A stretch of 53,795 nt of DNA from a virus, in UHGV virus genome UHGV-0191815; one strand, 5' to 3'. How positions within the stretch are numbered: the stretch's first letter is position 1; each line of letters begins with the position of its first letter. This document shows, piece by piece, positions 1,821-6,945 of this stretch. Below the pieces are notes generated by a model. That model was not told the DNA's origin. It was given only the letters and a program-made list of their open reading frames with translations, and did no database searches. The position numbers and the translations under genes were made by a program.

Positions 1821-4604
1821 ATGATTTACACAACTGGAACAATTGCCATTAATGGCAACACTGTTAATGGCGCGGGGACAAACTTCTCCGAGCCGCTTTC
1901 TCTCATTCGTGTGGGCTGCACGCTTATTGCTATCAGCAACCCTATCCAGATCTTTACAGTTACAGAAATCAAGAGCAGCACAGAACTGTCAGTAACGCCA
2001 GCGGCTAACCCTGCAATTGCTGCCGGAACAAAATTTAGCATTCTGCTTTCCGACTCGATCTCAGTTGATGGGCTTGCTCAGGACGTAGCTGAAACGCTGC
2101 GTTACTACCAGGGCAAGGAATCAGAGATCGCAACGGCGGTCGAGTGGTGGAATGAGTTCGGCGGTGATGGTCAGATGGAGCAACTTCTTGCCGACATTCG
2201 CACAGAAACGGCGCAATCAACCGCCAACGCTCAAAAAACAGAATCAGACAAAAACGCAGCGGCATCATCAAAAACAGCAGCAGCAAACTCAGCAACCGCA
2301 GCAAAAGCGTCACAGGATGCAGCAAAAGCCAGTGAAACAGCATCCAGCAACAGCAAAAAAGCGGCGGCTACCAGTGAAACCAATGCGGCAAAATCAGCAG
2401 CCGATGCGCTTAACTATCGCAACCAGGCACAGGCCATCACCGGATCTAACATCGGTCTTTCCTCAAATCCTCGAGACTGCCCGGATATTTCAGGAAACCC
2501 ATCAGGTTATCTTGGCTTTCTGCGCATCATGGAAGGGGCTACCGGGTGGCCTTCTATTGCTTCAGGTGAGCGCTATTTGTCTGGCTTTATTTGCCCGACT
2601 TTAGGCAGTGTCCCGGCATTTTCTGGTCTTTTTATAGGGCATATTACCGGCAGTGCTTACACTTATAAGTGGAGCGAATCAACAGGACCGCAATGGGCTA
2701 GACACGCAAGAAAAGATGAATTAGATGAGAATAGCTCACCACAGTTCAGATCTGTAAGTTTAAAAAGAGTTAGTGACTCGACTACCGGATGGGTTGCAGG
2801 AGGTCTTTTATCTAGCGTTTTGGTTGGTACATCAGGATCAGAACGTGTTTACGGTGGACTATACCCTGAGACAAACCTTTCTTTGCCTGACCAATTAACA
2901 CTACATTTGAGATCTGGCGGCGTGAACAGATACGCAAGCCTTAACGTAAACGGTGAATTTATAGCTGACTCTTTCAAACCTAAAAACGCTGAACAGACAA
3001 GGAGAAACATCAACATCCCAACCATAGGCGGTGGCGAGATAATAACAATCGAAGCACCGGAAGGCGTTGAGGATGGGAAGTATTACCCTATAATTATAAA
3101 CGCCAGTTATTACAGCGCGTACATAACTGGCTATCAGATCGATATTGTTACAGCGTCTGGCGCAGGTAATTACCCAATGAACTGTAACACCTTTTCGGGG
3201 TATGTAAGGACTGGTGGGTGGAGCGACAGAAAAGACGGCGGTTATGGTTACTATAATCGTTATAGTGATAAAGAAATCGCTTTACAATCTATCTGCAGTT
3301 CCAGCAAAGACAAAGATAATTTGCTCTTTGTTTTTGTTGAAGCAAGGGCATTTCCTGTTAAAATGCGCTTGCCTGTAGGCGTAACAGCAGAAGCACCAGC
3401 GGCCCAGGTTGTGTATGATAGTGGTAAAGATACAGAAACGATAATCCCGTGGGGTGTATCAGATCCGCTTAGTTCATATAAAAACCTGCAGGTTATGTTT
3501 GACTTCAGGATGGGTCGGTGCGGCTTTTATTCTGCAACGACTGAAGGACTTTATTATATTTGTAGCGGTGGCAGGGTCGGCCTGTTTAACGGAATTACCG
3601 TTGGCGAAGAAATATCTATGACGATGCCAAAGCTAACTATAAATGGCATGATAGGATCATCTAATGGTTACGTTGCACAAACTGACGCTGATTGGAATGG
3701 TCAGCAGTCAGATGGCATAAGCAAGTTTAAACCTATTGCTGGCAATGTTAACACGCCTGAAAACAGCCTAACTTATGGTGGTTTTCATGTTGGATTTAGC
3801 AATAGCCACGCAACTCAATTCGCCGGGCGCAATTCAAAATTCTACGCAAGAAGTTTTGAGGCCGGAGTAGATAAAGGTTGGCGTAGGCTTGCGACGCTTA
3901 ACGATAATCTTGTGCAAAGGTGGACGGGATACCAGGAATTTAAATCAACTGATTTTTATTCCGATACATTCTCAAGAAAACTATCTTTTAAAGTAACAAC
4001 GTCGACAGTAAGAAACGGAGCATTCGAGCTTTGGGGTGATCCAAACAGACCTACCGTTCTTGAGTATAAAATAAGAAATCCAGAGACAGATACAGCACTA
4101 AAATATGCGTTTTACGCGCAACAGAATACTGATGATTCAATAGTATTCAACGTTAACGGCGCTGTGACATGTGTTACAGTGACCCAATCATCAGATCGCG
4201 ATCTGAAGGACAACATTCAGGTTATAGGTGACGCTACCGAAGCAATCCGTAAAATGAACGGGTACACCTACACGCTCAAGGAAAACGGCCTGCCTTACGC
4301 TGGTGTTATCGCTCAGGAGGTCATGGAAGCGCTGCCGGAAGCTGTTGGATCGTTTACTCATTACGGTGAAGCGTTACAAGGCCCAACAGTTGACGGCAAC
4401 GAGCTACGCGAAGAAACTCGTTACCTAAATGTTGATTATGCAGCGGTTACTGGTTTACTTGTCCAGGTGGCACGCGAAACAGATAACCGCGTCACAGAAC
4501 TGGAAGAAGAAAACGCCAGCCTGCGAGCCAACATTGCCGCAATGGATGAGCGCATCGCAAAACTTGAAGCGCTTGTCAGTAAGTTGACCGGAAGCGAAAA
4601 ATAA
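1821..4604 (+). CDS. Side tail fibre protein with C-terminal intramolecular chaperone (peptidase S74-like) domain
   Basis: 927 aa; N-terminus has Ala/Ser/Thr-rich fibre repeats (KAAATSETNAAKS); C-terminus has SDRDLKDNI...YTYTLKE...GVIAQEV...coiled coil, typical of self-cleaving fibre chaperone domains; RBS ggag upstream. Confidence 0.75.
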   Translation: MIYTTGTIAINGNTVNGAGTNFSEPLSLIRVGCTLIAISNPIQIFTVTEIKSSTELSVTPAANPAIAAGTKFSILLSDSISVDGLAQDVAETLRYYQGKESEIATAVEWWNEFGGDGQMEQLLADIRTETAQSTANAQKTESDKNAAASSKTAAANSATAAKASQDAAKASETASSNSKKAAATSETNAAKSAADALNYRNQAQAITGSNIGLSSNPRDCPDISGNPSGYLGFLRIMEGATGWPSIASGERYLSGFICPTLGSVPAFSGLFIGHITGSAYTYKWSESTGPQWARHARKDELDENSSPQFRSVSLKRVSDSTTGWVAGGLLSSVLVGTSGSERVYGGLYPETNLSLPDQLTLHLRSGGVNRYASLNVNGEFIADSFKPKNAEQTRRNINIPTIGGGEIITIEAPEGVEDGKYYPIIINASYYSAYITGYQIDIVTASGAGNYPMNCNTFSGYVRTGGWSDRKDGGYGYYNRYSDKEIALQSICSSSKDKDNLLFVFVEARAFPVKMRLPVGVTAEAPAAQVVYDSGKDTETIIPWGVSDPLSSYKNLQVMFDFRMGRCGFYSATTEGLYYICSGGRVGLFNGITVGEEISMTMPKLTINGMIGSSNGYVAQTDADWNGQQSDGISKFKPIAGNVNTPENSLTYGGFHVGFSNSHATQFAGRNSKFYARSFEAGVDKGWRRLATLNDNLVQRWTGYQEFKSTDFYSDTFSRKLSFKVTTSTVRNGAFELWGDPNRPTVLEYKIRNPETDTALKYAFYAQQNTDDSIVFNVNGAVTCVTVTQSSDRDLKDNIQVIGDATEAIRKMNGYTYTLKENGLPYAGVIAQEVMEALPEAVGSFTHYGEALQGPTVDGNELREETRYLNVDYAAVTGLLVQVARETDNRVTELEEENASLRANIAAMDERIAKLEALVSKLTGSEK

Positions 4605-4634
4605 GAGGTGATGTGCGAAGAACATCGCCGCGCG

Positions 4635-4662
4635 AAACGAGGCTAACGCCTCGTTTCTTTTT
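4635..4662 (+). terminator. Intrinsic terminator after the tail fibre gene
   Basis: Stem aaacgaggc / gcctcgttt with loop taac, followed by cttttt. Confidence 0.6.
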
Positions 4663-4917
4663 GTGTACCAAATTGTGACCAAATTGATAAATCAAAAACA
4701 AAAACAAAACATAACACATTGAATACAAATGAATTTTTCATTAAGTTATCCATTCAAAAGATAAGTAGGTAACGCCATTTCTATCATTTCACATCGTGTC
4801 ACATCGTCACCGCTTCACATTGATTTTAAAAGAAATATTTATTCTATCGTGTCATATCGTTCCCTATCGTGTTACTATCCATGCGTAAAATGTGTGTACC
4901 AAATAGTGACCAAAATT
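4662..4917 (+). promoter_or_regulatory. Integrase upstream region with repeats; candidate attP / arm-type binding sites
   Basis: Two near-identical 23-bp direct repeats tgtgtaccaaatWgtgaccaaa (4662-4684 and 4893-4915) flank an AT-rich stretch carrying short 10-bp-phased repeats (acatcgtgtc / acatcgtcac at 4791-4810; tatcgt at 4845, 4855, 4865). Confidence 0.35.
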
Positions 4918-6117
4918 ATGCTTACAGATACCAAATTACGAAACATTCACGGCAAGCCATACGACGGCCCGGAAGAAGTACCGGACGCTGGCGGATTGTC
5001 TGCCAGGATAAGCCCGCGCGGAGTTATATCTTTCCAGTATCGCTACCGATTCAACGGCAAGCCTCGACGGATGAAGATTGGCACATACGGAGAAATAACA
5101 CTCAAAGAAGCGCGGGCGGCGGTGGCGGAGCATAAGGAAGTGCTAAACTCAGGCCGAGATCCATCGGTAGCAAAAAGAATGCACCTTTCCCGCGTTACGA
5201 CACGGGCAACGGTTGAGGATATTGTAAGGGAGTACATGGAATCGCCGCAGGCAAGGAACATGGTCAATTATAAGCAGGTTGAGGCCATGCTAGATAAGCA
5301 CGTCATAAAACCATACGGTAGCTATATAGTCGATGATATGGACGCTATGATGTGGGAGGGGGTTTTTAGAAAGGTAGCCAGCGGTGGCGCACCAGTTCAG
5401 GCAGGTATAGTTCTCAACAGAATGAAGGCCGTAATAAAATACGCCATTCGCCGCCGCCGCGTGGATCGTGACGATATATCATTGCTGTGCGTTAAAGACG
5501 TTGGCAAAAAACCAGCGCAAGGCAAGCGAGTTTTGTCAATACAGGAGATCCACCGCCTAATCGGCCTTATAGACAGTTCAAAAATGGCGCGGCTGAATCA
5601 GATATTGATGAAGCTGATTATATTTACCGGGTGCAGGACAAGCGAACTGACAAACGCAAGGCGCGAGCATTTCGATCTTGATAGCTGCGTGTGGACGGTT
5701 CCTGGTGCATTGAGTAAGAACAGGAATGAGTTTAAGCGCGGTTTATCGGGCGTTAGCGTGGCTTTATTGCGTGAGGCTATGGATCTGCATAGCTTTAATT
5801 TTGTCTTCGTTCCTGTGCTTTCTGGAAGGGATGAGGCGGTGGATAGAAGTGTACCAAAAACAGCAGCTAGGGATTTAATGATGAGGATGGGCGGCGAGCC
5901 GTGGTCATGTCACGATCTACGCCGCACCGTGAGGACAAACCTTTCAGCGCTTGGCGTTGCGCCTCACGTCGCGGAAAAGGTTTTGGGGCACAAGCTGGCG
6001 GGAATGTTGGCTATATACGATCAGTATGACTATGTGAGGGAACAAATAGAGGCGATGAATAAGCTGGCTGATTATTACATGAAGCCCATTGACTTACAAA
6101 ATGAAATAACATCCTGA
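4918..6117 (+). CDS. int: Tyrosine integrase, P4-like family
   Basis: N-terminus MLTDTKLRNIHGKPYDGPEEVPDAGGLSARISPRGVISFQYRYRFNGKPRRMKIGTYGEITLKEARAAV matches the P4-type integrase N-terminal domain; C-terminal catalytic region has HDLRRT and Y; the ORF-track start at 4849 is an upstream extension. Confidence 0.85.
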   Translation: MLTDTKLRNIHGKPYDGPEEVPDAGGLSARISPRGVISFQYRYRFNGKPRRMKIGTYGEITLKEARAAVAEHKEVLNSGRDPSVAKRMHLSRVTTRATVEDIVREYMESPQARNMVNYKQVEAMLDKHVIKPYGSYIVDDMDAMMWEGVFRKVASGGAPVQAGIVLNRMKAVIKYAIRRRRVDRDDISLLCVKDVGKKPAQGKRVLSIQEIHRLIGLIDSSKMARLNQILMKLIIFTGCRTSELTNARREHFDLDSCVWTVPGALSKNRNEFKRGLSGVSVALLREAMDLHSFNFVFVPVLSGRDEAVDRSVPKTAARDLMMRMGGEPWSCHDLRRTVRTNLSALGVAPHVAEKVLGHKLAGMLAIYDQYDYVREQIEAMNKLADYYMKPIDLQNEITS

Positions 6118-6173
6118 TAACGGTAAAGAGAACCGCCGCGCTTTAATGCTGGCATCCCCTTAACGGGTTCAGG

Positions 6174-6206
6174 GAATGGAGTACCTGAATCCTTCCATTT
6201 TTTAAT
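6174..6206 (+). terminator. Putative terminator after int
   Basis: Short hairpin (aatgga...tccatt) followed by ttttttaat. Confidence 0.3.
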
Positions 6207-6291
6207 CAGCTTAAAAAATGCCGACTTACTCAGCCCGCCCAACATTTTTTGCACTTGCTCACGATTAATAAGGATTGTCCGACCTTATCCA

Positions 6292-6945
6292 TTATCTTTC
6301 CCCCGTGTATTCAACGTGTCCGATACATCCATCAATAATAGCTTGCGCCATATTGCGATAATCACGCGTAAATTCACTGTCACGGCTAAAGTCGATCTCG
6401 CTTGCCGCGTCGTTACCCATAACCTTAGTGGCAAGTGCGAACGCTATTCCAGCGAGCGCCTTTTCTTTAGGATCTACATACAGCCTGAAAGAGTATGATG
6501 CCAATGATTGAGGCTTCTCTTCACAATCATCTTCCTTGCTTTCACATATGCCCCATTTATCACCAACATATTTAAATTTAACGACATCGAGAACCCTCCC
6601 GCTCGTAAGACCTACACAATCAAGCCACACACCAACCGGAGGCTTTTCGCCTGCCAGCCATTCCGTTTTTTCTGGTTGCGTTTCGCAATCACTGCGCTCA
6701 TCTTCGATTAATTCATCAATGATTTCACTTTCTTTATTCATACCGTCATCATCCTTTTCAGAGAAACGTATAAAGCGCCACGTATTAGCCATCAACGTAT
6801 AAGATTCGCCGCCAACCTTAGATCCTGCGTAATACTCCGTACCAAAATCGTAATAGCTCGAAAACGTTGTCACTTCGAAAGGCGGAATATCAACGCGGAA
6901 CCTGTGAAGCATTGTGCCTATTGCACGAGGTGTTTTATTTGCCAT
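6292..6945 (-). CDS. Hypothetical acidic protein (217 aa); last gene of the minus-strand operon
   Basis: Long ORF with ordinary composition and an acidic central region (DELIEDERSDCETQPEKTE); start codon sits 2 nt downstream of the stop of the 58-aa gene. Confidence 0.55.
   Translation of the reverse strand: MANKTPRAIGTMLHRFRVDIPPFEVTTFSSYYDFGTEYYAGSKVGGESYTLMANTWRFIRFSEKDDDGMNKESEIIDELIEDERSDCETQPEKTEWLAGEKPPVGVWLDCVGLTSGRVLDVVKFKYVGDKWGICESKEDDCEEKPQSLASYSFRLYVDPKEKALAGIAFALATKVMGNDAASEIDFSRDSEFTRDYRNMAQAIIDGCIGHVEYTGER

Follow-up and report, generated by a model that had tools for sequence, protein, structure and literature searches.

Does the repeat-rich interval upstream of the integrase gene (int) serve as the phage attachment site (attP), and, if so, which of its repeats would be read by the integrase and into which bacterial gene does the phage insert? 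The interval lies in a window of 53,795 nucleotides, by which we mean the whole stretch of DNA analysed here. As the initial annotation described, it is bordered by the terminator of the tail fibre gene on the left and the int start codon on the right:

4634-4661 (+): intrinsic terminator of the tail fibre gene; abuts the P arm and is conserved in all related loci
4918-6117 (+): tyrosine integrase (Int), 399 aa, with P4-type domain order (Arm-DNA-bind_3, Phage_int_M, Phage_integrase)

The terminator stem (4634-4657) comprises 10 bp, six of them GC pairs, with a 4-nt loop and a following T run, and the fibre gene before it encodes 927 aa with a Peptidase_S74 domain. Int matches PF13356 (7.9e-20), PF22022, and PF00589 in Pfam, and its N-domain matches the structures of CP4-like integrase N-domains (3ju0 and 3jtz).

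Judged from its sequence, the window is a temperate coliphage of the mEpimmI group with a type II, P4-type tyrosine integrase. DNA identity of the region is 94-96% with phages mEp010, mEp013, and mEp044 and 89% with phage MagusPhagus, and Int shares 97.5% amino-acid identity with that of mEp010. The mEpimmI group is comprised of Nus-dependent non-lambdoid coliphages (PMC11893012). Their integrases fall into four types, each tied to one host site (type II to the 3' end of abgT, types Ia and Ib to ydaM, and type III to mppA); the N-terminal DNA-binding region is conserved among the types, and the insertion site of the isolated type II phages was inferred via integrase homology (PMC11893012, Front Microbiol 2025). 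The phage described here shares its group, integrase type, and abgT 3'-end site with the known type II members (mEp010, mEp013, mEp044, and prophages). What differs is the subject: the published work deals with the insertion motif and with how integrase type corresponds to site rather than with arm architecture, and a search of its text for attP, arm-type sites, direct repeats, and an excisionase was negative (PMC11893012).

Prophage junctions and the abgT target

The query was matched by 50 complete E. coli genomes, 13 of which contain at least 80% of it. In all 13, the prophage lies at the 3' end of abgT, with ogt and abgT as annotated neighbours. On the int side (attL), the match between type II prophages in E. 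coli chromosomes and the window starts at 4756 and runs rightwards; on the fibre side (attR), it ends at approximately 4703-4706 because the DNA between there and the core is variable. In strain 2017C-4173W12, for example, the int side adjoins ogt and a 99-nt 3' fragment of abgT, and the fibre side adjoins abgT without its 3' end. The prophage order is ogt-'abgT-P' arm-int at one end and fibre-P arm-abgT' at the other. The following features at the core are needed to interpret these junctions:

4750-4775 (no strand): core region, with imperfect identity to attB throughout; 4756-4765 (AAAAGATAAG) is exact and contains the crossover
4754-4756 (-): phage-supplied in-frame TGA that ends AbgT after integration

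The junction data derive from relatives that are 88-95% identical to the window, and the empty bacterial site (attB) was taken from strain 7/2. The block AAAAGATAAG is identical in attP, attL, attR, and attB, both in a four-way alignment and in all fetched loci, and on the host side it falls in codons close to the 3' end of abgT. Its left flank reads CCATTC in the phage and CCACCA in the host, and on its right side the two sequences diverge starting at 4766. In two attL/attR pairs (L001/L003 and L035/L025), the switch from bacterial to phage sequence takes place across 4756-4765 only, and the crossover therefore lies within this block. Positions 4750-4764 are invariant among phages in the type II att sequences, and the supplementary prophage sequences of PMC11893012 end at the same AAAAGATAAG motif. 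Overall, the evidence supports 4662-4915 as attP, with insertion into the 3' end of E. coli abgT.

The initial annotation had placed a candidate attP upstream of int, had left its core to be defined from prophage junctions in bacterial genomes, and had suggested the 3' end of a tRNA gene as a possible target. The first of these proposals holds, as the junctions fall inside the interval it marked, at 4756-4765, and attL and attR together define the core. The suggested target does not: it is a protein gene, abgT, and the window itself contains no tRNA or tmRNA gene. A search for RNA families across 4300-6400 likewise returned a single, chance-level Rfam match. An attP on the other side of int, at 6118-6291, would have prophage junctions there, the outcome that the initial annotation named as refuting its proposal. 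All of them map to 4756-4765 instead, and 6075-6292 encodes a conserved 72-aa protein in relatives, so that the downstream region holds a convergent small winged-helix gene and no att site; we assign this alternative next to no probability.

Insertion shortens the product of the target gene. In the abgT frame, the phage contributes a TGA at bases 4756-4754 (minus strand), and AbgT therefore stops at residue 481 (ending ...YPLIF*) instead of the native 508; 27 residues are lost with no repair. This differs from the P4-type pattern of insertion at a tRNA 3' end with restoration of the gene. The target of P4 itself is the 3' end of a tRNA-Leu gene. The shortening of AbgT in lysogens removes a hydrophobic C-terminal segment.

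One contig departs from this arrangement. In IMG/VR 3300045988_111075 (L009, position 2392, minus strand), the fibre-side junction AAAAGATAAGTGG runs into the end of an open reading frame (ORF) whose translation seems to resemble AlpA-type excisionases, and not into abgT, which could reflect a tandem element or a secondary site.

Outer repeats and the layout of the arms

The core is flanked by two direct repeats, 4662-4684 (TGTGTACCAAATTGTGACCAAAT) and 4893-4915 (TGTGTACCAAATAGTGACCAAAA), which lie 231 bp apart. The arm features are:

4662-4684 (+): P-arm pair of candidate Int arm-type sites, P1 at 4662-4673 (TGTGTACCAAAT) and P2 at 4674-4684 (TGTGACCAAAT)
4712-4724 (-): IHF-like site ATTCAATGTGTTA, one mismatch from WATCAANNNNTTR
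4725-4749 (no strand): hypervariable spacer from the IHF-like site to the core, variable at 19 of its 25 columns in type II att sequences
4893-4915 (+): P'-arm pair of candidate Int arm-type sites, P'1 at 4893-4904 (TGTGTACCAAAT) and P'2 at 4905-4915 (AGTGACCAAAA)

The two copies differ by one mismatch over 22 bp or two over 23, with 89% identity over 27 nt. When the pattern TGTGTACCAAAT[T/A]GTGACCAAA was searched with up to three mismatches, no match other than these two was present in the 53.8-kb window, and 100 shuffles gave none. The pair of 23-bp direct repeats that had been noted around an AT-rich segment is real and unique in the window. Each 23-mer resolves into two tandem units of 11-12 bp, TGTGTACCAAAT followed by (T/A)GTGACCAAA(T/A), and the right pair stops 2 nt short of the int ATG.

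This layout closely resembles that of P4, for which the comparison used the core, the arm sequence repeats, and int as annotated in NC_001609. In both attachment sites, each arm carries a tandem pair of repeats of approximately 12 bp, in one orientation throughout, with the right pair just upstream of int (15 bp before the ATG in P4). The two pairs are separated by 209 bp in P4 and by 231 bp here, and the distance from core to right pair is 113 bp and 127 bp, respectively. The similarity extends to an upstream terminator and an Arm-DNA-bind_3 domain at the N-terminus of Int, and perhaps to a partner protein with an AlpA-type fold, for which this phage has a candidate. The arm motif itself is different, (T/A)GGGGGCA in P4 and GT(G/T)ACCAAA here; the integrases are approximately 25% identical over 63% of their length; and this phage lacks the additional inverted arm repeat that overlaps the int start in P4.

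P4 also has an annotated arm repeat inside int. The exact arm-type units occur elsewhere once only in this phage, as GTGTACCAAAA within int (5849-5859, +). It was considered as an arm site and set aside as a probable chance match; the mEp021 integrase differs at the aligned residues. A further candidate, a third P' arm site at 4926-4937 (GATACCAAATT), was also rejected: it codes for the conserved residues DTKL, and neither L022 nor the type I phages retain its DNA sequence.

Other integrase types provide a second line of comparison. A scan of viral contigs with the 23-mer pattern yielded 37 loci, and the P-arm pair occupies the same position in type Ia, Ib, and II attP regions. Phages of type Ib (mEp021 and L037) and type Ia (L013, L029, L040, and L043) carry a different core (CATTCCAGACAGG) within unrelated DNA. 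Their target is the gene named ydaM in PMC11893012 and dgcM in RefSeq. Nevertheless, the first 23-mer follows right after the terminator and the second lies 5-15 bp before the int ATG, with a spacing of 241-242 bp. Between the window and L037, the right 23-mer is identical at 21 of 22 positions, compared with 35-42% in the DNA directly upstream and 55-75% in the int coding DNA downstream. Within type II (20 att sequences), the right 23-mer has no variable column and the left varies at positions 13, 15, and 23 of the 23-mer.

The integrase protein follows the same division. Identity between types is 64% over residues 1-90, 35% in the middle domain, and 52% in the catalytic domain; the arm sites and the arm-binding domain are thus kept jointly, and the core and the core-reading domains change jointly. 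We therefore read the 23-mers as putative integrase arm-type sites, two tandem units per arm, because (i) their layout matches the annotated P4 attP, (ii) the 21/22 identity is kept in phages with other cores and targets, and (iii) their conservation goes along with that of the N-terminal arm-binding domain of Int. For the 23-mers, the arm-site role first suggested for this region is supported by both the P4 comparison and the other integrase types.

Two IMG/VR contigs, 3300045988_076816 (L021, position 3148, minus strand) and 3300045988_064823 (L033, position 536, plus strand), precisely lack the 231 bp between the 23-mers. The terminator, one 23-mer, and the int ATG stand in direct succession, and the core and inner repeats are gone; in L021, the excisionase gene is frameshifted as well. 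They do not count as two independent deletions, as they come from the same metagenomic population with no mismatch between the contigs, which represents either a non-integrating variant or an assembly collapse. A third contig, 3300045988_049781 (L023, position 7082, minus strand), contains a type I P arm and the core CATTCCAGACAGG, followed by approximately 110 nt of other sequence and then DNA like window 6250-6340; the int and excisionase genes are seemingly missing.

Direct repeats around a segment can come from insertion, and the 23-mers might on that basis be a functionless duplication, left behind, for instance, when the 231-bp core segment was once inserted. A phage population without exactly the inter-repeat segment would suit this explanation. 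It does not account for a sequence that is nearly unchanged in three attP types with unrelated intervening DNA, for the lack of a single variable column in the right copy among type II sequences, or for the internal two-unit tandem structure of each 23-mer, as in P4. We consider it very improbable and retain the arm-site reading.

Left of the core, the P arm contains an IHF-like site. No exact IHF consensus is present in the region, which counts against our explanation. Among the 20 type II att sequences, the consensus positions at 4712-4724 are invariant and the four N positions (4715-4718) are hypervariable, a pattern of variation that fits a real IHF site.

Inner repeats, a candidate excisionase, and int expression

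Between the core and the P' arm sites lie shorter repeats, which lead to a small gene beyond int:

4781-4810 (+): inner repeats set 1, CTATCATTTC (degenerate), ACATCGTGTC, and ACATCGTCAC
4844-4884 (+): inner repeats set 2, CTATCGTGTC, ATATCGTTCC, CTATCGTGTT, and CTATCCATGC (degenerate); candidate excisionase or regulator sites
4870-4878 (+): candidate extended -10 element of the int promoter, TGTTACTAT, from alignments only
6075-6292 (-): candidate recombination directionality factor (RDF), an AlpA-fold winged helix; convergent with int and frameshifted in the window

The motif YATCGT starts at 4792, 4802, 4845, 4855, and 4865, always on the plus strand, with degenerate copies at 4781-4790 and 4875-4884. 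Five copies in 107 nt compare with 0.076 expected from the window's own density, an approximately 65-fold excess, and no other 107-nt stretch on either strand of the window holds more than two. Spacing within set 2 is 10, 10, and 11 bp, and a distance of 43 bp from set 1 to the start of set 2 places every copy on one side of the helix. Type II phages show next to no variation in the ATCGT cores. In type I phages, YATCGT is absent and two to three copies of TAAT(A)TCCGT(T/A)C are found instead; unlike the 23-mers, the inner repeats therefore follow the integrase type.

The initial annotation was correct that short repeats in 10-bp phase occur between the 23-mers. Its view of them as integrase arm sites fares less well, as they are more likely to be excisionase or regulator sites. 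If the roles were swapped, the YATCGT repeats would be the integrase arm-type sites and the 23-mers would either bind another factor or mark the edges of an exchangeable cassette. The number and phasing of the YATCGT repeats are compatible with this, as is the position of the left 23-mer at the border between a conserved structural module and a variable att-int module. Yet YATCGT occurs on one arm only and is replaced in type I phages despite a conserved Int N-domain; the annotated arm repeats of P4 share the layout of the 23-mers; and a module border offers no explanation for the right 23-mer, whose identity stands out from diverged DNA to its left and right alike. We regard swapped roles as improbable and continue with the 23-mers as candidate arm-type sites.

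The inner repeats are probably bound by the AlpA-fold excisionase candidate whose gene lies beyond int. In ten relatives, the ORF for this protein is intact; the product is 72 aa long and begins MDK(I/V)GTILINREQVQKML... (MDKVGTILINRE...); it is 44% identical to its mEp021 counterpart. Its best fold match is an AlpA-family excisionase, although Foldseek against the PDB returned nothing significant. Pfam gave no significant match (none, or Phage_AlpA at E 0.19) and NCBIfam no match; in PHROGs, the window-type and mEp021 proteins both match phrog_4745 (DNA binding protein), and the mEp021 protein has an additional weak match to an excisionase family. The inner repeats and the small protein co-vary with integrase type, which is weak evidence because only two or three types were compared. 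That this protein would bind the YATCGT repeats, direct excision, and help to repress int is a proposal we hold to be evenly poised between right and wrong.

In the window itself, the gene has a 1-nt deletion after codon 5, near 6278 (ATGGATAAGGTCGG-ACA). The ATG frame stops after 20 codons, leaving a GTG restart at 6254 that would encode 59 aa. Either a sequencing error in the G run or a real excision defect would explain the frameshift.

Alternatively, the inner repeats could be operators at which a host factor or a phage repressor regulates the int promoter, rather than excisionase sites. Set 2 overlaps the candidate extended -10 element, and the excisionase assignment draws on fold similarity only. 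The arrangement nonetheless points the other way: direct repeats one helical turn apart are the typical form of RDF sites (PMC7498355), and, placed on the int-proximal arm, they follow the usual RDF layout (PMC3509656). In addition, the repeats change along with the int/RDF module, and YATCGT clusters nowhere else in the window. Operators are in our estimation an unlikely reading, although the most credible of the competing ones, and we favour excisionase sites.

The candidate promoter itself was recognized from alignments. A constant TGnTACTAT (n = T, A, or G) is found in relatives, and type I phages carry TGTTAATAT at that position, from which we infer that TGTTACTAT may be an extended -10 element. 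A sigma-70 consensus scan found no promoter in the P' arm, and this too counts against our explanation.

The int start is assigned to ATG 4918 because, counted from that codon, the Pfam arm-binding domain opens at residue 2, and because indels of 1-2 nt are found in relatives immediately before the ATG. The longest ORF, from GTG 4849, was rejected on the same two grounds. In the annotation of MagusPhagus (PP925836, L045), a 30-aa hypothetical ORF (697-789) is placed in the P' arm and int (782-2017) begins at an upstream codon; given the upstream indels in relatives, both look like artefacts. No Shine-Dalgarno sequence can be recognised ahead of the type II int start, ATG 4918 (...GACCAAAATTATG; window 4915-4920), and the ribosome-site position holds AGAGGTG in type Ib phages and a G run in type Ia. 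This suggests that the type II integrase may be weakly translated.

Proposed integration model and significance

Taken as a whole, we consider it very probable that 4662-4915 is the attP of a type II, P4-type Int from an mEpimmI-group phage. In this model, the N-terminal domain of Int would bind two tandem 11-12-bp sites per arm (the 23-mers) and its core-binding and catalytic domains would work at the core. The P arm would be bent by IHF at 4712-4724. On the P' arm, five to seven YATCGT repeats in 10-bp phase would be bound cooperatively by the small AlpA-fold protein, and this binding would direct excision. The candidate int promoter (4870-4878) would sit between the inner repeats and the P' arm sites; from such a position, Int and the excisionase would also be expected to repress int.

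Similar to lambda attP, the site is predicted to combine arm-type sites on either arm with a heterobivalent integrase, a bend induced by IHF in the DNA that joins arm and core, and RDF sites in the form of phased direct repeats. Lambda differs in the family of its Int N-domain, in the orientation of int, whose 3' end points to the att site, and in the binding of Xis to the P arm. The KplE1/HK620 system (IntS and TorI) places the int promoter inside the int-proximal arm (attL), as the candidate promoter would be here (PMC2951348, PMC3509656). That arm contains Int arm-type sites and several cooperative RDF sites, five of them for TorI in KplE1 attL (PMC3509656), and candidate counterparts of both are present in this phage. 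In KplE1 and P4, repression of int by Int and the RDF, a consequence of the promoter lying within attL, has been shown experimentally (PMC2951348). KplE1 differs in that it inserts in the argW tRNA gene and encodes its RDF at the opposite end of the prophage, rather than convergent with int.

With its protein-DNA contacts predicted, the attP is an ordinary, well-built member of a familiar type. As the abgT insertion site has already been published (2025, PMC11893012), the gain is modest. The new detail consists of the arm-site layout, a candidate excisionase with candidate sites, a candidate self-repressed int promoter, and a candidate IHF site. With a 10-bp crossover block and arms of approximately 255 bp, the attP is now fixed to the base and provides a site map for a recently described group of gut coliphages. 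Lysogeny truncates AbgT, the p-aminobenzoyl-glutamate transporter, and a host phenotype may follow.

Finally, the arm sites and the Int N-domain together might form a fixed scaffold for at least three integration specificities within one phage group, namely abgT and two motifs in ydaM (dgcM in RefSeq), in which only the core/inner-repeat cassette of approximately 200 bp, the core-binding and catalytic domains of Int, and the excisionase change. We advance this tentatively, at slightly less than an even chance. If true, it would represent a natural retargeting of integrases with the intasome frame kept. It would also mean that recombination between the 23-mers can delete the core precisely and produce phages unable to integrate, of which one metagenome population would be an example. 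Arms that are common to several integrase specificities could, in turn, help to retarget P4-type integrases.
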